This document shows, piece after piece, positions 20,178-32,000 of a DNA stretch of 32,000 nt. Numbering within the stretch: position 1 is the stretch's first letter; every line of letters starts with the position of its first letter. This stretch comes from Methylorubrum extorquens (lineage in GTDB: Bacteria > Pseudomonadota > Alphaproteobacteria > Rhizobiales > Beijerinckiaceae): NCBI GenBank assembly GCA_900234795.1, contig LT962688.1:1680001-1712000 (forward strand), written 5' to 3'. The position numbers and the translations under genes were made by a program. The notes below the pieces were generated by a model. It was not told the DNA's origin. It saw only the letters and a program-made list of their open reading frames with translations, and ran no database searches.

Positions 20178-23100
20178 ATGTTCGCCAAGGTTCTGGTCGC
20201 CAATCGCGGCGAGATCGCCGCCCGCGTCGTGCGCACATTGCGGCGCATGGGCATCGCCTCGGTCGCCGTCTACTCCGACGCTGACCGCTTCACGCCGGGC
20301 GTACTCGCCGCCGACGAGGCCGTGCGCCTCGGCCCCGCGCCGGCCGCGCAGAGCTATCTCGACGTCGAGGCCGTCGTCGCCGCCTGTAAGGCGACCGGCG
20401 CAGAGGCCGTCCATCCCGGCTACGGCTTCCTGTCCGAGAATGTCGGCTTCGCCGAGCGGCTGGCGGCGGAAGGGATCGTTTTCATCGGTCCGCGCCCGGA
20501 GCACCTGCGCGCCTTCGGCCTCAAACACACGGCCCGCGAGCTGGCCAAAGCCAGCGGCGTCCCGCTCCTGCCCGGCACCGACCTCTTGCCCGATCTTGAG
20601 ACGGCGCTGAGCGCAGCCGAGGCGATCGGCTATCCGGTGATGCTCAAGAGCACGGCGGGCGGCGGCGGCATCGGGATGCAGCTCTGCCATTCGGGCCAGG
20701 AGCTGGCCGAGCGCTTCGCTGCGGTCGAGCGCACCGCGCGGGCCAGCTTCGGCGACGCCCGCGTCTATCTCGAGCGCTTCGTGGCGCAGGCCCGCCATGT
20801 CGAGGTGCAGATCTTCGGCGACGGGCGCGGCCGCGTCGTGGCGCTCGGCGAACGCGACTGTTCGCTCCAGCGCCGGAACCAGAAGGTGATCGAGGAGACG
20901 CCCGCCCCCGGCCTCTCCGACGCCGTGCGCGCCCGGCTCCACGCCGCGGCGGTGGCTTTGGGGGAGAGCGTCGCCTACGCCTCGGCCGGCACCGTCGAGT
21001 TCATCTACGATCCCACGCGCGAGGATTTCTCGTTCCTCGAAGTGAACACCCGGCTCCAAGTGGAGCACCCGGTGACGGAGGCGGTGTTCGGCATCGACCT
21101 CGTGGAATGGATGGTGCGCCAGGCCGCGGGCGAAGACCCGATCACGGCGGCCGGGCCGCTCGTGCCGAGGGGCGCGGCGATCGAGGCCCGGCTCTACGCC
21201 GAGATCCCGCACGCGAATTTCTCGCCGAGCGCCGGCCTGCTGACCGAGGTGCGCTTCCCCGAGACCGCCCGCATCGACGGCTGGATCGCCACCGGCACCG
21301 AGGTCACCCCGTTCTACGACCCGATGCTCGCCAAGATCATCGTCACCGGCACCGACCGTCCGGCGGCTTTGGCCGAACTCCGGGCAGCGCTGGCCGACAC
21401 CGCCATCTCCGGTATCGAGACCAACCTCGACTACCTCCGCACCATTGCCGCCTCCGACCTGCTGGCGAGCGGGCGCGTCGCGACCACGGCCCTGCGCGAC
21501 CTCGCCTATGCTCCCAAAAGCATCGAAGTGCTGCTGCCGGGCGCCCAGTCCAGCCTTCAGGAGCTGCCCGGCCGGCTCGGCCTGTGGGAGGTCGGCGTGC
21601 CGCCGAGCGGGCCGATGGATGCCCGCTCCTTCGCCCAGGCCAACGCCCTCGTCGGCAACGGGCAGGACACCTGCGCCCTCGAACTCACCGTCTCGGGCCC
21701 GACGCTGCGCTTCCACACGGATGCGCGGGTGGCCCTCGCGGGCGCTGCGATGCGGCTCACCCTCGACGGTGAGGCGCGCCCGCACGGGCAGGCTTTCTCG
21801 GTGAAGGCGGGCCAGACGCTCGCCATCGGCGCGATCGAGGGGCCGGGCCAACGCGCCTATCTCGCCCTGCGCGGCGGCCTCGCGGCGCCCGTGGTGCTCG
21901 GCTCGCGCGCGACCTTCGCGCTGGGCGCCTTCGGTGGCCACGCCACCGGCGTCCTGAAGGCCGGCGACGTGCTCCATCTCGGCGATGCGCTGGAGGTCAC
22001 CGCCGCCCCGCCCGAGCCCGCGCCGCTGACGCAGGATTGGGAGATCGGCGTCGTCTACGGCCCGCACGGCGCGCCGGACTTCTTCCAGGAGGCCGATATC
22101 GCCGATCTGTTCTCGGCGTCCTACGAGGTGCATTTCAACTCGGCCCGCACGGGCGTGCGCCTGATCGGCCCGACGCCGCGCTGGGCGCGGACCGACGGCG
22201 GCGAGGCGGGCTTGCACCCCTCGAACCTGCACGACAACGCCTACGCCCTCGGCGCCATCGACTTCACCGGCGACATGCCGATCCTGCTCGGCCCCGACGG
22301 GCCGAGTCTCGGCGGCTTTGTCTGCCCCGCGGTGATCGCCCGCGACGAGCTGTGGAAGATGGGCCAGCTCCGGCCCGGCGACACGGTGCGCTTCCGTCCC
22401 CTGGCCCGGCCGGAGGACGCGCTCGCCGCCCCGGCCCTGATCGGTGGCGCGGGCAGCCTGCCCGGCTCGCCCATCCTCGCCCGCGACGAGACCGGCCTGG
22501 TCCCCGTCGCCTATCGCCGCCAGGGCGACGACAACCTCCTCGTCGAGTACGGCCCGATGGCCCTCGATATCGGCTTGCGGCTGCGGGTCCACCTGCTCGC
22601 CGAGGCGGTGCGCGCCGCGCGGCTGCCCGGTCTGACCGACCTGACGCCCGGCATCCGCTCGCTTCAGATCCACTACGACGGGACGGCGCTGCCGCGCTCG
22701 CGCCTGCTCGGCAGCCTGCGCGAGATCGAGGCCGGATTGCCGCCGGCGGAGGCCGTCAGCGTCCCGAGTCGTACCGTTCACCTGCCGCTCTCGTGGAACG
22801 ACCCGCAGGCGGAACTGGCCATGCGCAAGTACCAGGAGTTGGTGCGCCCCAACGCACCCTGGTGCCCCTCGAACATCGAGTTCATCCGCCGCATCAACGG
22901 CCTGCCCGACGAGGCGGCGGTGCGCAGCATCATCTTCGATGCGAGCTACCTCGTGATGGGGCTCGGCGATGTCTATCTCGGCGCGCCGGTCGCCACCCCG
23001 GTCGATCCGCGCCACCGCCTTGTGACCACCAAGTACAACCCGGCCCGCACCTGGACGCCGGAGAACGCGGTCGGGATCGGCGGTGCCTATCTATGCATCT

Positions 23101-23708
23101 ACGGCATGGAGGGGCCGGGCGGGTACCAGCTGTTCGGACGCACGATCCAGGTCTGGAACACGTGGCGGACCACCCGCGAATTCGTGCCCGGCCATCCCTG
23201 GCTGCTGCGGCCCTTCGACCGCATCCGCTTCTTCCCCGTCAGCCATGACGAGCTCACCGAGGCCCGCGCCGCCTTTCCGCACGGCGCCTATCCGATCCGG
23301 ATCGAGGACGGCACGTTCTCCTACGCCGAGCACCGAATGATGCTCGCGGGCAACGCCGCCGAGATCGAGCAGGCGGGGGCGCGCCAGAGGGCGGCCTTCG
23401 CGGCCGAGCGCGAGCGCTGGAAGGCGGAAGGCCTCGACAGCTTCGTCGCCGACGAGGCGGTGGCGGCGGAGGCCGCCGAGATCCCGCCGGGCTGCGAGGG
23501 CGTGCCGACCACCGTGCCTGGCAATGTCTGGAAGGTTCTGGTCGGCGAGGGCGAGACCGTAGCCGCCGGCCAGACGGTGGCGATCCTCGAATCGATGAAG
23601 ATGGAGGTGGCGGTCACCGCCCCCGTCGGCGGCCGGGTCCGCGAGATCCGGGCCCAGCCCGGCCGCACCCTGCGCGGCGGCGACCTCGTCGCCATCCTCG
23701 AGACCTGA
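20178..23708 (+). CDS. biotin-dependent urea/guanidine carboxylase (biotin carboxylase + allophanate-hydrolase-subunit-like CT domains + BCCP)
   Basis: 1176 aa. It has an N-terminal ATP-grasp biotin carboxylase (MFAKVLVANRGEIAARVV...), central KipA/KipI-like domains, and a C-terminal biotinyl domain with ..ILESMKMEVAV... The riboswitches and DUF1989 pair argue that guanidine is the substrate. Confidence 0.92.
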   Translation: MFAKVLVANRGEIAARVVRTLRRMGIASVAVYSDADRFTPGVLAADEAVRLGPAPAAQSYLDVEAVVAACKATGAEAVHPGYGFLSENVGFAERLAAEGIVFIGPRPEHLRAFGLKHTARELAKASGVPLLPGTDLLPDLETALSAAEAIGYPVMLKSTAGGGGIGMQLCHSGQELAERFAAVERTARASFGDARVYLERFVAQARHVEVQIFGDGRGRVVALGERDCSLQRRNQKVIEETPAPGLSDAVRARLHAAAVALGESVAYASAGTVEFIYDPTREDFSFLEVNTRLQVEHPVTEAVFGIDLVEWMVRQAAGEDPITAAGPLVPRGAAIEARLYAEIPHANFSPSAGLLTEVRFPETARIDGWIATGTEVTPFYDPMLAKIIVTGTDRPAALAELRAALADTAISGIETNLDYLRTIAASDLLASGRVATTALRDLAYAPKSIEVLLPGAQSSLQELPGRLGLWEVGVPPSGPMDARSFAQANALVGNGQDTCALELTVSGPTLRFHTDARVALAGAAMRLTLDGEARPHGQAFSVKAGQTLAIGAIEGPGQRAYLALRGGLAAPVVLGSRATFALGAFGGHATGVLKAGDVLHLGDALEVTAAPPEPAPLTQDWEIGVVYGPHGAPDFFQEADIADLFSASYEVHFNSARTGVRLIGPTPRWARTDGGEAGLHPSNLHDNAYALGAIDFTGDMPILLGPDGPSLGGFVCPAVIARDELWKMGQLRPGDTVRFRPLARPEDALAAPALIGGAGSLPGSPILARDETGLVPVAYRRQGDDNLLVEYGPMALDIGLRLRVHLLAEAVRAARLPGLTDLTPGIRSLQIHYDGTALPRSRLLGSLREIEAGLPPAEAVSVPSRTVHLPLSWNDPQAELAMRKYQELVRPNAPWCPSNIEFIRRINGLPDEAAVRSIIFDASYLVMGLGDVYLGAPVATPVDPRHRLVTTKYNPARTWTPENAVGIGGAYLCIYGMEGPGGYQLFGRTIQVWNTWRTTREFVPGHPWLLRPFDRIRFFPVSHDELTEARAAFPHGAYPIRIEDGTFSYAEHRMMLAGNAAEIEQAGARQRAAFAAERERWKAEGLDSFVADEAVAAEAAEIPPGCEGVPTTVPGNVWKVLVGEGETVAAGQTVAILESMKMEVAVTAPVGGRVREIRAQPGRTLRGGDLVAILET

Positions 23709-23792: not shown

Positions 23793-23912
23793 ATGATGCA
23801 GCAGATCCACCGCACCCTCACCGCGATCCTCGGTCTGGTCGTGCTCGGCCTCCAGGCCAAGGCTGCCGGACGGCTGCCGCAGGGTGAGCGGGGCCGGGAG
23901 ACGCCGCGATAG
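23793..23912 (+). CDS. hypothetical 39-aa single-pass membrane micro-protein (speculative)
   Basis: GGAGA lies 6 nt upstream of ATG. Product: MMQQIHRTLTAILGLVVLGLQAKAAGRLPQGERGRETPR. GC3 is about 87%. It sits in the otherwise empty 305-nt gap between the carboxylase and the allophanate hydrolase. Confidence 0.25.
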   Translation: MMQQIHRTLTAILGLVVLGLQAKAAGRLPQGERGRETPR

Positions 23913-24012
23913 GCCTTCCGGCCGCCGGGCCATCAGGCTCGGGCCGCCGGAGCCATCCCCCCTTCGAATTTCGGGCCGCGTGCTGCCGCCCCTTCACGGA
24001 CGTGAGAGATCG

Positions 24013-25848
24013 ATGCCGGTTCCCGCCTTCCCGAGCCTCAGCGCGCTCCACGCCGCCTATGCCGAGGGGCTCTCGCTCGAGGTGGTTCTGGCCGAGATCG
24101 ACCGCCGCATCGCTGTTGCCGACGATCCCGGCATCTTCCTCGCGCGGGTGCCGGCGGCGGAGATGCAGGCCGCCGCCCGCGCGCTGGGCCCCTTCGACCC
24201 CGCCAACAAACCGCTCTGGGGCGTGCCTTTCGCGGTAAAGGACAATGTCGACGTGGCGGGCCTGCCCACCACCGCCGCCTGCCCGGATTTCGCCTACACG
24301 CCGCAGGCGACCGCCCCGGCGGTCGAGCGCCTGCTCGCGGCCGGCGCGATCCTCGTCGGCAAGACCAATCTCGACCAGTTCGCCACCGGGCTGGTCGGTG
24401 TGCGCACGCCCTATCCGGTGCCGAAGAACGCCATCGATCCCACGATCGTGCCGGGCGGCTCCTCGTCCGGCTCGGCGGTGGCGGTGGCGCGCGGCCTCGT
24501 CACCTTCGCGCTCGGCACCGACACGGCGGGTTCGGGCCGGGTGCCGGCCGGCCTCAACAACATCGTCGGGCTCAAGCCCTCCCTCGGCAGCGTCTCGGGC
24601 CGCGGCGTGGTCCCGGCCTGCCGCACGCTGGACACCCTCTCCGTCTTCGCCGGCACCGTGACGGAGGCCGATGTGGTCTTTCGGATCATGGCCGGATACG
24701 ATCCGCAGGATCCGTATTCGCGCGCCCTGCCCGTTCCACCCCGCCCCGGTGCCCTGCCCCCCGGCCTGAGGGTCGGCGTGCCGGATGCGGCGAGCCTGAT
24801 CTTTGCCGGCGACGCGCTCTCGGCGAATGCCTTCGACGGGGCACTCGCCGACCTGGACACGGTGATCGGCGGCGCGGCGGTGACGGTCGATCTCGCGCCC
24901 TTCTTCGCGGTGGCGGGGCTTCTCTATGCCGGCCCCTGGGTGGCCGAGCGCTATCAGGCGATCCGCGGTTTCATCGAGGAGCGCCCGGAGGCCCTGCACC
25001 CGACCACGCGGGCGATCATCGGCGCGGCCACCGGTCACTCGGCGGCGGATGCCTTCGCCGGCCTCTACCGCCTCGCCGAACTGCGCCGGGCGACGGAAGT
25101 CGTCTGGCGCGGAATCGACGTGCTCGTGGTGCCGACCTATCCGCGTCCGCGCCGCGTCGCCGACCTCGCCGCCGACCCGGTCGGCCCCAACAGCGAGCTC
25201 GGCACCTACACCAACTTCGTCAACCTGCTCGATCTCTGCGCCCTCGCGGTGCCGGGGCGCTTCCGGGCCGACGGCCGCCCGTCCGGCGTCACGCTGATCG
25301 CGCCGCGCGGGGCCGACGGCCTCATCGCCGAACTCGGCGCCCGCCTCCACGCGGCGGCCGGCGGCACCCTCGGAGCGAGCGGCGTGCCGATCCCGGCGGA
25401 GGCCGCATCGCCGGGGGATCGCGCGCAAAGGGGAGATCGCGCGCAAGGGGACGAGATCGAGATCGCGGTGGTCGGCGCGCACCTGTCCGGCCTGCCGCTC
25501 AACGGCGAGCTGACCGCCCGTGGCGCCCGCTTCCTGCGCGCCGTCCGCACGACGCCGGATTACCGCCTGCACGCGCTGCCCGGCGGGCCGCCGGCCCGGC
25601 CCGGCCTGATCCGCGTCGCGCCCGGGTCGGGCCATGCGATCGAGACCGAGGTTTGGGCGCTGACACCGGACGCCTTCGGCTCCTTCGTGGCGGGGATTCC
25701 CGCGCCGCTCGCGATCGGCACGCTGTCGCTGGCCGACGGCACGGCGCCGAAGGGATTTTTGGCGGAAGCGGCCGGGCTGACGGGGGCGCGCAACATCAGC
25801 GACCACGGCGGCTGGCGCGCCTATCTCGCCTCCGTAACAGCGACGTAG
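24013..25848 (+). CDS. atzF: allophanate hydrolase
   Basis: Track ORF 23884.. trimmed to MPVPAFPSLSALHAAYAEG, 611 aa. It has the amidase signature (..GGSSSGSAVAVARG..GTDTAGSGRVPA..) and the C-terminal AtzF-type domain. Confidence 0.9.
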   Translation: MPVPAFPSLSALHAAYAEGLSLEVVLAEIDRRIAVADDPGIFLARVPAAEMQAAARALGPFDPANKPLWGVPFAVKDNVDVAGLPTTAACPDFAYTPQATAPAVERLLAAGAILVGKTNLDQFATGLVGVRTPYPVPKNAIDPTIVPGGSSSGSAVAVARGLVTFALGTDTAGSGRVPAGLNNIVGLKPSLGSVSGRGVVPACRTLDTLSVFAGTVTEADVVFRIMAGYDPQDPYSRALPVPPRPGALPPGLRVGVPDAASLIFAGDALSANAFDGALADLDTVIGGAAVTVDLAPFFAVAGLLYAGPWVAERYQAIRGFIEERPEALHPTTRAIIGAATGHSAADAFAGLYRLAELRRATEVVWRGIDVLVVPTYPRPRRVADLAADPVGPNSELGTYTNFVNLLDLCALAVPGRFRADGRPSGVTLIAPRGADGLIAELGARLHAAAGGTLGASGVPIPAEAASPGDRAQRGDRAQGDEIEIAVVGAHLSGLPLNGELTARGARFLRAVRTTPDYRLHALPGGPPARPGLIRVAPGSGHAIETEVWALTPDAFGSFVAGIPAPLAIGTLSLADGTAPKGFLAEAAGLTGARNISDHGGWRAYLASVTAT

Positions 25849-27503: not shown

Positions 27504-27719
27504 TTACATCCGGTGACGCATCGACCGGTGATGGTGCCGATGCATCATCCGCTTGCGCATCATGTGCCGGTGCATCATCCGCCGCTCGTGGTGGGACATG
27601 CGAGCCTGCGTGACGCTGCTGTCGGCTTGGATGCCAGCGGGTGCAATCGGCGCCGCCGATGCGGTGCCGGCCGTAAAGCCTCCGAGCAGGATTGCCAGCG
27701 CGAGCGTGGTCTTCTTCAT
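27504..27719 (-). CDS. secreted His/Met/Arg-rich peptide (hypothetical, possible periplasmic metal binder)
   Basis: AAGGAG lies 6 nt upstream of the second ATG. Product: MKKTTLALAILLGGFTAGTASA (signal peptide), then ..MSHHERRMMHRHMMRKRMMHRHHHRSMRHRM. In the last 31 residues I counted 9 H, 9 M and 9 R. Confidence 0.6.
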   Translation of the reverse strand: MKKTTLALAILLGGFTAGTASAAPIAPAGIQADSSVTQARMSHHERRMMHRHMMRKRMMHRHHHRSMRHRM

Positions 27720-27962
27720 CACCATCTCCTTGGGAGCTTAGGGCCGTCCCAGGCAGGGTGGATAGGTGATTATCCTAGGCCAGGGTTCCCACCCGAGGGA
27801 ATTTTCCTCCAACGACAGGAGCCAAGGAGCGCCCCCGCCGGGATTACGCTCGCTGGCCCCTAAAGCCGTCTCCGACCCCATTGCATCAGACCGGCGTCTC
27901 TCAGTCTTTGTTTTGATCCGCTTTCTTTCGCCGAACCGGCGTCCACTTCGTCGGAAAGCGCT

Positions 27963-28202
27963 CTAACGCTTCTTGCCCAGCTCCGCCGCGATGTCCTTGG
28001 TCATGCGGCCGACCTTTCGGTGGGCTGCGGTGAGCTGGTCCTGGGTGACGCCCCAGCGCTTCATCCAGAACTCGACCGCTTTGCGCTCGCTGAGGTCGAG
28101 ACGGTCCTTGTCGATGAAACCGCGCTTGTCCTTGAGGCCAGCCATGAATGATCCCGTGAGGTCGTCGGAGGGCGTCGGATTGGATGAGGTGGGCAACGCC
28201 AT
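27963..28202 (-). CDS. DUF3606-like small protein
   Basis: ..DKDRLDLSERKAVEFWMKRWGVTQDQLTAAHRKVGRMTKDIAAEL.. fits the remembered DUF3606 pattern (D..RI....E.E..YW..K.GV....L..AV..VG.....V...L). An alternative start is at 28145. Confidence 0.65.
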   Translation of the reverse strand: MALPTSSNPTPSDDLTGSFMAGLKDKRGFIDKDRLDLSERKAVEFWMKRWGVTQDQLTAAHRKVGRMTKDIAAELGKKR

Positions 28203-28404
28203 CCGTATCTCAAGGCGCCTGCGGAGTTATACCCGAAGGCAATCCCCTTCTGCCCGCTGCGGCCGCCTGGGATTGCCTCACGCAGCTCGGGAAACGTCCA
28301 AGCGCGGCACGAGCAGGGGCCCGTTGGGCGGCGAGCGCGGCGGGTTTCGAGGCCCATCGGAGAGGGGCACCTGTCGCATAGGTGCCTGCCAACCCTCTGT
28401 CAGC

Positions 28405-28638
28405 TAACGCGTCTTGCCGGATCAGGTACTTGAACGCCGTCTGGCGGAAGAGGTGGGACATTCCGAGCTGCCGTTGAAACTCGTTTCTTGTCAATTACTT
28501 AGTGGTTGCGAAGGCGCGCTTCTGTAGCGTGAAACTGTAGCACCGGCTTGCGCCTGTCAGGCAGGCGGGAAGGGTGGCTTCCTGCCTCGCGAGGGTCAAC
28601 CTGAGGGTAACGCCAAGCCCGACTCCGTTTGAAGGCGC
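28405..28638 (-). pseudogene. decayed C-terminal fragment of a tyrosine recombinase/integrase (tentative)
   Basis: My own minus-strand translation gives ..LTGASRCYSFTLQKRAFATTK*LTRNEFQRQLGMSHLFRQTAFKYLIRQD... Compare the integrase box II pattern H.LRHTFAT.L...G.....IQ..LGHSS...T..YTH. There is an in-frame TAA (28495-28497), the LGH His is replaced by Met, and there is no N-terminal part. Confidence 0.3.
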
Positions 28639-28651
28639 CTATTCGGCATTG

Positions 28652-29620
28652 TTACGATAAGAGCCAGATTCCAGCATGAATTGCGAATTGTTTGCCGAAC
28701 TCTGTCGACTTATACACGTCAACGCTATGAATGGTTCCGCCGCTGTGTTCCTGGGTTCTCTCAACATCCAGCAAATTGTAGGCCGCATACTCTCCTAGTA
28801 GGTTTATGACGGAGTTCCTGTGATTGTCCTTGATACCAAGTGAAACGTTGACGGCCTTCATCGCAGTCCATAATTTACAGCCCGTCGAAAATGATCTATT
28901 TATTTCATGGAAAAGCAGCAGCATGCTGACCTCATCGTCAATTTCGATGTTGTCTGGAAAAAAAGATGCTGCCATTGTTTCGGATAGAATTTTGATCCTG
29001 TGCTCAATGTCTGCCGAAAGTTTCGGTTCAGAGACCTGCTGCCGGAGATCTTCAACGGCCTTTTGAAGGTTCCTCTTCTCCTCCGAAAGCTTTGCAATTT
29101 CGTTTAATGCCGCTGGAGTTGCAGCTGTATCAGCTCTAACCCAGCCCGTCCTTGGTCGGTGGCGTGTTAATTCGACTAACGAAGATATCACTTTCGATCC
29201 AAGATCGTCGGAGTTTTTCCAAAATTTGACCAATTTTTGTGAGCAAATATCTCTAAATTTATTTAGCGTATCTTTCTTTTCAAACTCGATCTTGCTTTGG
29301 GGCCATGAAGCCCTTGCTGCCTCGTGAAGAAGAAAGGCTATGGTGGGCACGCCACGGGCAACTGCATATTCGTATTCCATTTGCGTAAAACTTTTTCCGT
29401 CTTGCTCGGCGCCGTAGCGCTCAGCAACAATGACGACGTAATAGTCGCACTCATCAATTCTCTGCTTAATGTAATTCCATTGAGAATCGTCGCTTGCCTG
29501 AAATAGTTCCATGCCGACTGGAATGTGTCCAAGGTTAAGAACTTGCTCGATGGCAACTCTGCGCTCAAGTTCAAGATCTTGAAATGTTGAACTTACAAAA
29601 ATTTGGTACTTCTTTTCCAT
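28652..29620 (-). CDS. DUF4062-like (TIR/nucleoside-deoxyribosyltransferase-like fold) protein with coiled-coil and unknown C-terminal domain; low-GC foreign gene
   Basis: 322 aa. The N-terminus is MEKKYQIFVSSTFQDLELERRVAIEQVL..GHIPVGMELF..YIKQRIDECDYYVVIVAERYG..SFTQMEYEYAVARGVPTIAFLL (remembered DUF4062 signature: IF[IV]SSTF.DL..ER). It has a coiled-coil (..LSEEKRNLQKAVEDLRQQ..). GC is by eye about 40-45% against about 70% in the flanks. TATAAT (complement of 29640-29645) lies upstream. Confidence 0.75.
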   Translation of the reverse strand: MEKKYQIFVSSTFQDLELERRVAIEQVLNLGHIPVGMELFQASDDSQWNYIKQRIDECDYYVVIVAERYGAEQDGKSFTQMEYEYAVARGVPTIAFLLHEAARASWPQSKIEFEKKDTLNKFRDICSQKLVKFWKNSDDLGSKVISSLVELTRHRPRTGWVRADTAATPAALNEIAKLSEEKRNLQKAVEDLRQQVSEPKLSADIEHRIKILSETMAASFFPDNIEIDDEVSMLLLFHEINRSFSTGCKLWTAMKAVNVSLGIKDNHRNSVINLLGEYAAYNLLDVERTQEHSGGTIHSVDVYKSTEFGKQFAIHAGIWLLS

Positions 29621-30042
29621 ATTGATAGCTCTATTGTAAATTATATTTCTGGCAGTTCGTCTAGATGTGACCTATACATTTACCGGTGCGATGAGGAGGC
29701 CCAGGCGTAGAACCACGAGGTGCAACGACGAAGAGCTTCTTCTAGCAAGCGCATCCAACCTGAACCCTAAACAGCTACGCTCTGCATAGCAGGCAGAACG
29801 GCAAGGACCTGAAATATTTTCGGCAAAAATCTGAGGGGGCATCGATCTAGCGGCACGCGCGCAATTCCCCCCGCGCCCCCTGGGGTGCCCACCTCCGCCC
29901 GCCCAGGCACGCGCCCGCCCGCGGCATTGAGCACGCCCGCACAGGCGCGTTCAGCGGCGCGTGAGCGCGCGCGGTGACGGCACCTTCAGAAAGCGGTTCG
30001 GGAGGTAGAGGCCGCCGTCTCCAGCAGCCCCCGGTCCTCAGC

Positions 30043-30327
30043 TCAACGGCCTCCGCTCGACCCGGACGAAGAGCCTCCGCCCTCGCCCTTGAAGCCGGCC
30101 GCGTTGGGCGAGCCCTGCATGCGCCCGTCCTGCTTCTTCATCTCTTGGCCCGGTGCGGTGCTCGATGCGCCCGGTCCCGTCGTCCCGGTGGTATCCTTCT
30201 TGTCGAACCCGGCAGCGTTCGGTGAGCCCTGCATACGGCCTTCACCCTTTCCCGAGCTGTCGCCTGCCCACGCGGCGGTGCTCATCGCCAGCATGCCGGC
30301 TGCAATGACCAAGGCGGTGTTTCGCAT
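30043..30327 (-). CDS. small secreted Gly-rich protein with duplicated GRMQGSPNAAGF motif
   Basis: AGGAG lies 6 nt upstream of the ATG (complement of 30325-30327). The signal peptide is MRNTALVIAAGMLAMSTAAWA. The two 36-nt repeat copies (30091-30126, 30205-30240) differ at 6 nt, all synonymous, which supports translation. Confidence 0.7.
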   Translation of the reverse strand: MRNTALVIAAGMLAMSTAAWAGDSSGKGEGRMQGSPNAAGFDKKDTTGTTGPGASSTAPGQEMKKQDGRMQGSPNAAGFKGEGGGSSSGSSGGR

Positions 30328-30513
30328 AGCCATCTCCTGATGCGTTTCCTCGCCGCCATCTTCCGAGCGGCTTCGAGTAACCTCGGGCGGATGGCTGGCG
30401 TTCATCGCGGAGCCGGCGTTCCATTAGGGCAAGCTCCTGCGGAACGTTCCACGATGTCACCGGAGCGGTTCCAAAAGAATGGTATTGCATTTCGGAACGG
30501 CTGATGGTTCTAT

Positions 30514-30537
30514 TGATCTGCCCCCACCGGGTGGTCC
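30514..30537. repeat. IS3-family element left terminal inverted repeat
   Basis: See the mobile_element entry; aligned by eye to the reverse complement of 31771-31795. Confidence 0.7.
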
Positions 30538-30547
30538 AGGCATAGAG

Positions 30548-31732
30548 TTAGTGCACGGTTGGCCTTTGCTCCACGGGTCGCTTGGCCGGCGGAGCCGGTG
30601 GGGTGAGCGCAGCCGGCCAAGCGGTGAACGCGGGTAAGAAGACCTCTGGCGCGGGCGGCCGATAGCCGAGTGCGCCATGCGGGCGGACGGTGTTGTAGTG
30701 CCGCTGCCAGCTCTCGATCAGGATCTGCGCCTCCCGCAAGCTATAGAAGATCTCTCCGTCCAGCAGTTCGTCGCGTAGCCGTGCGTTGAAGCTTTCGACG
30801 AAGCCATTTTCCCAGGGCGATCCTGGCGCGATGTAGGCCGTCTTCGCGCCCACCCCCATGATCCAAGCCTGCACGCTCTTGGCCACGAACTCAGGGCCAT
30901 TGTCCGAGCGAACATGCTCGGGCACGCCGCGCAGTATGAACAGGTCGGACAAGACGTCGATCACGTCGACTGCCTTGAGCTTGCGTGCGACCCGGATCGC
31001 CAAGCACTCGCGGGTGAACTCGTCAATCACGTTGAGCATGCGCACCTTCCGGCCATCGTGGGTGCGCGCTTCGACGAAGTCGTAGGACCAGACGTGGTCG
31101 CGCCGCTCAGGCCGCAGCCGCAAGCAGGAGCCGTCGTTGTCCCAGAGGCGCCCGCGCTTGGGTTGGCGGGTCGGCACCTTCAGCCCTTCACGCCGCCAAA
31201 TCCGCTCGACGCGCTTGTCGTTGACGAACCAGCCGGCGGCCTTCAGCAGCGCGCAGATCTTGCGGTAACCGTAGCGGCCATACCGCTCGGCCAACGCGAC
31301 GAGGTCGGCGGTGAGCGCGGCCTCATCCTCCCGGCCCCGCGGCACCTTGCGCTGCGTCGAGCGATGCTGACCGAGCGCCCGGCAGGTGCGCCGCTCGGAG
31401 ACGTTCATCGTCAGCATGATGTGCTCGACACAGGCGCGTCGGCGCGCGGGGCTCAGAAGTTTCCCCCGTGCCGCCTCCTGCAGGATGAGCTTGTCGAGCG
31501 TCAGGTCTGCAATCGCCTTCCTGAGCCGCTGGTTCTCCGTCTCCAGGTCCTTCATGCGCCGGACCTGATCGGTCTTCAGCCCGCCGAACTCACGACGCCA
31601 GCGGTAGTAGGTAACCTCGCTCACGCCGATCGCCCGGATTGCCTCCGCCACGCTCGTACCTTGACCGATCAGCACGTCGGCTTGGCGCAGCTTCGCGACA
31701 ATCTCCTCAGGCTTGGGTCGCTTCCTCGACAT
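30548..31732 (-). CDS. IS3-family transposase (fused OrfAB form, HTH + DDE/rve integrase core)
   Basis: Trimmed to MSRKRPKPEEIVAKLRQADVL.. (AGGAGGA RBS), 394 aa. It has an N-terminal HTH/leucine zipper (..ETENQRLRKAIADLTLDKLILQEA..) and an rve core (..VWSYDFV..SDNGPEF..SPWENGFVESFNARLRDE..). No frameshift is needed. Confidence 0.9.
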   Translation of the reverse strand: MSRKRPKPEEIVAKLRQADVLIGQGTSVAEAIRAIGVSEVTYYRWRREFGGLKTDQVRRMKDLETENQRLRKAIADLTLDKLILQEAARGKLLSPARRRACVEHIMLTMNVSERRTCRALGQHRSTQRKVPRGREDEAALTADLVALAERYGRYGYRKICALLKAAGWFVNDKRVERIWRREGLKVPTRQPKRGRLWDNDGSCLRLRPERRDHVWSYDFVEARTHDGRKVRMLNVIDEFTRECLAIRVARKLKAVDVIDVLSDLFILRGVPEHVRSDNGPEFVAKSVQAWIMGVGAKTAYIAPGSPWENGFVESFNARLRDELLDGEIFYSLREAQILIESWQRHYNTVRPHGALGYRPPAPEVFLPAFTAWPAALTPPAPPAKRPVEQRPTVH

Positions 31733-31770
31733 CGATCCGTCCTCCTGGCTCGAAAGCCATACTAAAGGGC

Positions 31771-31795
31771 GGACCACTCCGCTGGGGGCGGATCA
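31771..31795. repeat. IS3-family element right terminal inverted repeat
   Basis: See the mobile_element entry. Confidence 0.7.
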
Positions 31796-32000
31796 ATGCG
31801 CCGGAGCGGCGGGCTGCGCGGCTACGACAGCGGCGGGATCGTTGGCCGCGACGCCTTCACGAGGCCAAGCGCGGCTGCGATGCGTCCGGCCAACGGCAAT
31901 GGGGTGCCGAGCATCAACTTCATCGACCAGCGTCCGGCCGGATCACCTGAGATGGAGCCGGCTGTAAAGCGCCGCTCGGATGGCAGCCTTGATGTGATCG

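Follow-up and report, generated by a model that had tools for sequence, protein, structure and literature searches.

The low-GC patch and its single gene

The subject of this analysis is a 32,000-nucleotide stretch of Methylorubrum extorquens DNA (GenBank assembly GCA_900234795.1, contig LT962688.1, positions 1,680,001 to 1,712,000 of the forward strand; hereafter the window, numbered from its first base) and, within it, an intact 322-aa gene of the DUF4062 (NIR) family, of the type known as Swarozyc, at 28652..29620 on the minus strand. The gene lies where an initial annotation, made from the sequence alone, had noticed an abrupt compositional drop: guanine-cytosine (GC) content at 28640–29830 is 45.0%, against 68.3% for the whole genome (5.72 Mb, single contig). 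Across 1.2-kb windows genome-wide the mean GC is 0.683 (SD 0.038), which places the patch at z = −6.06; windows as GC-poor number 18 of 28,572. The patch contains this one open reading frame (ORF), whose AT-rich codons have GC contents of 0.52, 0.35, and 0.47 at positions 1, 2, and 3, respectively; adjoining host genes have third-position values (GC3) of 0.82–0.94. The window's genome holds exactly one copy of the gene and no other DUF4062 gene.

Upstream, low-GC DNA at 29621..29830 carries a minus-strand TATAAT box at 29640–29645, 19 nt ahead of the ATG, and may serve as the promoter region. The reading frame is full length, starts and ends as its homologues do, and keeps every invariant residue. 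Pfam places DUF4062 (PF13271) on residues 6–86 (profile positions 1–82 of 82, E = 1.7e-28, 99 bits, cut-off 24.7), and both motifs from which a DUF4062-like N terminus had first been recognized, IFVSSTFQDL and TQMEYEYA, are found in the protein. Pfam detects neither a STAND NTPase nor a HEAT repeat in the 322 residues, and its TIR_2 profile reaches 15.1 bits, under the cut-off of 28. PADLOC 2023 and NCBIfam returned nothing meaningful for the protein, both libraries being older than the 2026 papers on this family. The protein matches the PHROG families phrog_15411 (E = 1.6e-70) and phrog_9489 (E = 1.1e-45), and a tblastn search against phage records gave just two weak Acinetobacter phage matches. 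Phage carriage is better shown by the PHROG families and the prophage contexts described below than by the tblastn phage matches.

Osinski et al. 2026 (bioRxiv 10.64898/2026.05.01.722283) characterized DUF4062 as a TIR-like enzyme that cleaves nicotinamide adenine dinucleotide (NAD+), that is, an NADase. In that work, the single-gene Swarozyc protein of Klebsiella pneumoniae (KpSwz) forms a head-to-head oligomer in which it is autoinhibited, and it is activated when its C-terminal helix-turn-helix (HTH)/winged-helix AUX domain binds the phage portal; activated KpSwz converts NAD+ to ADP-ribose (ADPR) and nicotinamide, producing abortive infection, and both E97 and AUX are essential. Evangelion (Ibarra-Chavez et al. 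2026, bioRxiv 10.64898/2026.06.25.731849) has the same core with diversified AUX domains, and defense by its member Eva01 is lost with F11A, E87A, W162A, or AUX truncation. Le Mouellic et al. 2026 (bioRxiv 10.64898/2026.09.04.749371) renamed the domain NIR and added the systems Avs2-NIR, Vulcan (NIR + HEAT), and Vesta (NIR + alkaline phosphatase).

The predicted TIR-like NADase core of the window protein comprises residues 1–165 (29126..29620, minus strand), with support from Pfam, alignment to KpSwz and Eva01, and Foldseek. KpSwz (PDB 10wc/11cq/11cv) is the closest solved structure (E = 1.8e-37 on residues 2–206), with 36% identity over 203 aa of core and stalk in BLASTP. The KpSwz chain as deposited carries E97A, and the alignment offset was anchored on D16, R18, D71, and W176; the E97 column then corresponds to E82 of the window protein (FTQM-E-YEYA), whose codon at window 29375–29377 reads ttc on the plus strand and GAA on the minus strand. 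Independently of this mapping, hhalign to Eva01 (Staphylococcus aureus pSAS) pairs F11 with F8, E87–Y88 with E82–Y83, and W162 with W160. Among 30 full-length homologues, no variation is seen at F8, Q47, W48, or W160, and E82–Y83 is kept in at least 90%. Within the acidic TQMEYEYA motif, whose Glu residues the initial annotation had named as targets for mutation, the putative catalytic residue is narrowed to the first Glu, E82.

An AlphaFold2 model built on the alignment of these 30 homologues (mean predicted local distance difference test score, pLDDT, 87.1) contains a five-strand α/β core at residues 1 to ~155, a low-confidence linker at 162–167, and a long stalk helix at 169–196. The helix lies downstream of the invariant W160 (KpSwz W176) and matches the KpSwz stalk in the alignment; the stalk as a whole, residues 166–200 (29021..29125, minus strand), joins core to sensor. 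Foldseek against a PDB library older than the KpSwz release returned plant and bacterial TIR domains, SPARTA TIR-APAZ, TIR-STING, and nucleoside 2'-deoxyribosyltransferase, with template-modeling scores to target of 0.5–0.6; the TIR-type matches have probability 1.0. Matches in the viral library were deoxyribosyltransferase-like proteins, TIR proteins, and small winged-helix proteins. The TIR/nucleoside 2-deoxyribosyltransferase-like fold suggested at the outset is therefore borne out by the model and its structural matches.

Residues 201–322 (28655..29020, minus strand) form the putative AUX sensor, which the model, PadR matches, and hhalign support as a PadR-like winged helix. The model of this region (pLDDT 91–98) comprises helices, a long β-hairpin (284–293/296–305) forming the wing at 284–305, and a terminal helix, and the domain carries a conserved Y-x-L-T-x-Y-G-K motif. 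The initial annotation had divided the C-terminal half into a coiled coil and an uncharacterized domain: the long helix and the separate domain both stand in the model, but the domain can now be placed as the probable counterpart of the Swarozyc AUX. A profile of the 30 homologues spans KpSwz end to end (hmmsearch positions 2–316 to chain 3–323, E = 3.1e-60), and hhalign of the family profile to KpSwz covers 299 columns (E = 2.6e-45); with Eva01, hhalign covers residues 4–185 of 324 only, so that the architecture groups with Swarozyc and not with Eva01. Searched alone against PDB sequences, the AUX profile finds PadR-family winged helices best (3l7w, E = 3.9e-5; 5dym, E = 8e-5). The net charge of AUX is −6 in the window protein, −8 in KpSwz, and −6.1 on average in the clade, where 23 of 25 homologues are acidic; this acidity argues for protein sensing rather than DNA binding.

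Insertion site, prophage remnant, and homologues

Synteny with the closest relative (G007) stops at window 28458 and restarts at window-equivalent 53087, the two ends overlapping by 17 bp. The overlap reads TGGCGGAAG(A/G)GGTGGGA and duplicates, as a direct repeat (16/17 bp), the 3' end of tRNA-Ser(TGA). The left copy, the core of the left attachment site (attL), is TGGCGGAAGAGGTGGGA at 28442..28458, located from the G007 empty site and ARAGORN; ARAGORN places the intact tRNA-Ser(TGA) beyond the window, on the minus strand at window-equivalent 53087–53176 (G000:C1:1733087-1733176). Together, the empty-site junction and the tRNA-Ser repeat define the intervening ~24.6 kb as an integrated element. 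In a second relative these flanks enclose a different insert of ~66 kb (G034:C1:3905267-3971243). Occupied by the remnant here, vacant in one relative, and filled by another insert in the second, the tRNA-Ser(TGA) site is therefore an integration hotspot.

The DUF4062 stop codon lies 194 bp inside the element, counted from attL, behind a 193-bp noncoding spacer (28459..28651) with stops in six frames and no PF00589 match. The gene is terminal prophage cargo near attL, not a defense-island gene. Of the initial proposal that the low-GC segment is a horizontally acquired insert, the foreign composition holds, whereas the segment is not free-standing and instead forms the end of the ~24.6-kb remnant: we saw no evidence for a separate insertion with its own repeats, and its left edge is the attL of the larger element. 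An integrase-like remnant that had been placed at 28405–28638 was abandoned, as this stretch has stops in every frame, gives no PF00589 match, and holds attL. The box-II-like motif behind that candidate straddles attL, consisting of the tRNA-derived core and host DNA shared with the relative's empty site; because the downstream half of the peptide is this host DNA, the candidate was rejected.

The element has no integrase, with no PF00589 match there in a six-frame genome search, and is without head, portal, or terminase genes; it is a decayed prophage. What survives includes a plus-strand tail and lysis module, recognized by Pfam and PHROG, that starts at 31796..32000 and runs on to ~43.2 kb, beyond the window. 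The tail genes encode a phrog_384 virion structural protein, a DUF1833/phrog_396 minor tail protein, an NlpC/P60-like protein, and a 1701-aa GpJ-like tail protein. Also beyond the window, the element holds a peptidoglycan-binding/CHAP endolysin, a split AraC gene, a GNAT/FemAB gene, a Cro/C1-type HTH gene, and a tRNA-Tyr. The tRNA-Tyr(GTA) lies at window-equivalent 52295–52378, ~700 bp from the right attachment site (attR). The AraC regulator occupies two adjoining ORFs at window-equivalent 47374–48367 (minus strand), one encoding the arabinose-binding N-terminal part and the other the rest with HTH_18, and is probably a frameshifted pseudogene within the element. A stand-alone PilZ gene (Pfam E = 7e-5; window-equivalent 33990–34361, minus strand) lies within the phage tail operon in antisense orientation, on a patch of low GC.

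Homologues of the DUF4062 protein are numerous: an exhaustive search matched 10,054 representative clusters with the E threshold set at 1e-3, falling to 1,931 when it was tightened to 1e-30, and most of them align with the query on residues ~1–200 only. Full-length relatives at 44–52% identity occur mainly in Rhizobium, Neorhizobium, Mesorhizobium, Methylosinus, and Pleomorphomonas. The homologue is poorer in GC than its flanks at 41 of 43 loci (average difference 11 points), and distribution within the genus is patchy, with DUF4062 present in 11 of the 100 genomes from other species. In other species of the genus, DUF4062 also appears in longer open frames of 418–793 aa (e.g., G067:C199:31986-32231), which suggest that a single genus houses this effector in further architectures.

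Six loci were sampled for context. One homologue occupies one end of a prophage in Rhizobium leguminosarum, NinB and RusA being close by; one lies within an integrase/resolvase islet; one adjoins nSTAND2 and TIR_2 genes as well as an insertion sequence (IS); and two stand solo amid housekeeping genes. No neighbor gene recurs among the six, nor was a partner found at the window locus, in agreement with the earlier description of a gene without partners; the lack of a recurring neighbor points to a one-gene system.

Between the DUF4062 end of the remnant and the surviving tail module sits the IS3 element that had been noted nearby, here delimited as an ISMex5-like element of 1282 bp at 30514..31795 (minus strand; Pfam rve/HTH_Tnp_1 and plasmid annotation). 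Its best plasmid matches are from Methylorubrum and Methylobacterium, and its transposase is a single 409-aa frame (30548–31777), not the usual orfA/orfB frameshift pair. The genome holds at least 10 copies at 99.7–99.8% identity, near-identical and hence recently active. The bases flanking this copy (ctat / atgc) show no target-site duplication, and neither do those of most other copies, so that its absence here is uninformative on IS-mediated deletion; joining the IS flanks restored no convincing ORF.

Between the DUF4062 gene and the IS lies a gene at 30043..30405 (minus strand) for a 120-aa, secreted-looking protein with a signal-peptide-like N terminus and a duplicated internal GRMQGSPNAAGF, which gave no Pfam, PHROG, or PADLOC match. 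It is co-carried with the DUF4062 gene on 2.6-kb contigs of other sequencing runs. In all, 22 short contigs from such runs encode the identical DUF4062 protein; 10 of them, when aligned, were 99.96–100% identical to window 27936–30543, attL included, and the contigs end at the IS and at a dispersed repeat of ~110 bp. This repeat (window 27858–27969) lies between the host flank and a DUF3606 gene, has at least 40 genome copies (79–93% identity) and more in genus relatives, and breaks short-read assemblies; it looks like an element of the repetitive extragenic palindromic or miniature inverted-repeat transposable (REP/MITE) type.

Host DNA just left of the element encodes a 73-aa secreted peptide with a His/Met/Arg-rich C terminus (window 27504–27725, minus strand), and the host flank farther upstream carries housekeeping genes, namely urea carboxylase (20178–23708) and allophanate hydrolase (23884–25848). 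Elsewhere, the whole genome contains 17 clusters of 1.2-kb windows with GC ≤ 0.50, several of which adjoin tyrosine-integrase genes (e.g., near 974–976 kb, 2.959–2.965 Mb, and 4.490–4.502 Mb) and may represent further foreign cargo.

Proposed function and alternatives

We consider it likely that the gene encodes a functional, single-protein abortive-infection defense enzyme of the Swarozyc type that destroys NAD+. A single-gene NAD-targeting immunity or abortive-infection effector had been among the initial suggestions, and the characterized relatives (KpSwz, Eva01, NIR-Avs2, and Vulcan), together with the retained essential residues, lend it support. By analogy with KpSwz, Eva01, and the NIR relatives, the N-terminal domain would act as an NAD+ glycohydrolase of TIR-like type, with Glu82 as its catalytic residue. 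In an uninfected cell the protein would probably be held as an inactive head-to-head oligomer through its core and stalk (~166–200), with the acidic winged-helix AUX (201–322) as the sensor through which activation passes; once triggered, the enzyme would convert NAD+ to ADPR and nicotinamide and bring about abortive infection. The gene came in at the attL end of a temperate phage that integrated in tRNA-Ser, and it has remained intact while integrase, head, and packaging genes disappeared from that prophage.

Several observations weigh against this assignment. When AUX is compared alone, hhalign to the KpSwz AUX core is weak (77% probability, E = 2e-5, 14% identity), and an AUX-only hidden Markov model searched against PDB sequences failed to retrieve KpSwz. 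The KpSwz Trp238–Tyr239 portal anchor has no equivalent in the window protein, where the aligned stretch (..FFPDNIEIDDE..) is a loop in the model. Not all family members defend: Eva02 was nonprotective in published tests, and the DUF4062 members tested so far come from enterobacteria, Pseudomonas, and staphylococci, none from this alphaproteobacterial clade. PADLOC on 10 neighbors of the gene found no known defense gene, just a generic HTH, and a consensus scan upstream gave no full −35/−10 promoter. Finally, the surrounding prophage has decayed, so the gene itself could be a relic. Of these points, the missing Trp-Tyr anchor concerns trigger specificity and not effector mechanism; with AUX so strongly diverged and the hairpin absent, the KpSwz trigger is not transferable to the window protein.

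A relic would be cargo that was once functional, is now silent, and has spent too little time in a dead prophage to decay. The absence of a full consensus promoter and the losses of integrase, head, portal, and terminase would fit such a history, as would the IS and the split AraC gene that the element carries; all other copies found are 100% identical and hence offer no readable selection signal. Yet the frame retains its full length, homologue-like ends, and all invariant residues, and a TATAAT box stands just upstream. Terminal prophage cargo genes (phage morons) typically have their own promoters, active in lysogens. On balance we regard a silent relic as unlikely. A change of chemistry on the same fold—production of a signaling nucleotide, as by the Thoeris ThsB TIR, or action on nucleosides or nucleotides, as by 2'-deoxyribosyltransferase or CMP (cytidine monophosphate) hydrolase, without NAD+ depletion—draws on the Foldseek matches to nucleoside 2'-deoxyribosyltransferases and a viral "deoxyribosyltransferase", and on the first annotation of DUF4062-Avs effectors as CMP hydrolases (10.64898/2026.09.04.749371). 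It is decidedly unlikely, given that all four bacterial DUF4062 systems tested and human TEP1 cause NAD+ loss with release of ADPR and nicotinamide, and that TEP1 gave no other detected ADPR derivatives (10.64898/2026.05.01.722283, 10.64898/2026.09.04.749371); a signaling role, moreover, would depend on a partner acting as receptor or effector, and the gene has no conserved neighbor of that kind.

The PadR-family transcription factors that head the AUX-only matches (E = 3.9e-5) raise a further alternative, in which the protein is a DNA-binding prophage regulator of PadR type and its TIR-like domain is incidental. The acidity of AUX throughout the clade makes it unsuited to DNA binding, the domain in the same position in KpSwz is a sensor of protein (the portal), and the solo homologues among housekeeping genes have no prophage to regulate. 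We hold this to be highly improbable.

Within the preferred reading of an NAD+-destroying defense enzyme, what the sensor recognizes is a separate matter. In the Rhizobiales/Methylobacterium clade, to which the window protein belongs, AUX appears to combine an acidic, PadR-like winged helix with an extended β-hairpin wing and to lack the Trp-Tyr anchor. We propose, tentatively, that this clade has an AUX subtype of its own that may sense a nonportal phage component, and that it constitutes a separate Swarozyc specificity class, kept by the host after the carrier prophage died.

The gene is a new member of a very recently described kind and not a new system; diversified AUX domains and prophage carriage are already stated properties of the family. 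DUF4062/NIR NADases were recognized as immune effectors only in 2026, and the locus adds a clean alphaproteobacterial example. Its insertion history is legible base by base, from the attL copy of tRNA-Ser to the empty site in one relative and the other insert in another. The sensor has diverged from that of the sole solved structure while effector and stalk are conserved, which makes the protein a reasonable test case for how AUX swaps retarget a fixed NADase. The locus also carries a caution for annotation: PADLOC 2023 and NCBIfam still miss the DUF4062 defense family.

Comparison with known DUF4062 systems

The closest counterpart in architecture is Swarozyc KpSwz, likewise a single gene of ~320–340 aa with a DUF4062 core bearing the catalytic Glu, a GW(V/I)RAD junction, a helical stalk, and an acidic AUX of apparent winged-helix fold. 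KpSwz binds the Bas14 portal through its Trp238–Tyr239 hairpin, whereas the window AUX is ~14% identical to that of KpSwz and has the long wing at 284–305 with no such anchor. The carriers differ as well: a prophage remnant in an alphaproteobacterium here, and an enterobacterial defense island for KpSwz. By score, ~1,900 clusters at 50% identity are no farther from the window protein than KpSwz is.

Evangelion Eva01 shares the single-gene plan of DUF4062 core plus AUX, carriage on mobile elements, and the residues corresponding to F8, E82–Y83, and W160, at a core identity of 34–36%. Its AUX is unrelated, however, and Eva01 (S. aureus pMW2/pSAS) is plasmid-borne and tied to phage recombination and replication functions, in contrast to the prophage setting of the window gene.

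PsAvs2, Vulcan, and Vesta have the same effector domain and the same catalytic-Glu logic, in which NAD+ depletion leads to abortive infection. They differ in what is attached: Avs2 has a STAND NTPase and TPR and Vulcan has HEAT repeats, whereas the window protein has neither and carries a winged helix instead; Vesta has an alkaline phosphatase partner (VstB), and no such gene adjoins the window gene. More distantly, the protein resembles SARM1, Thoeris ThsB, and SPARTA TIR-APAZ in its flavodoxin-like α/β fold and catalytic Glu. Unlike these canonical TIR NADases, DUF4062 is a family of its own, and the dimer interface seen in KpSwz is a different one.

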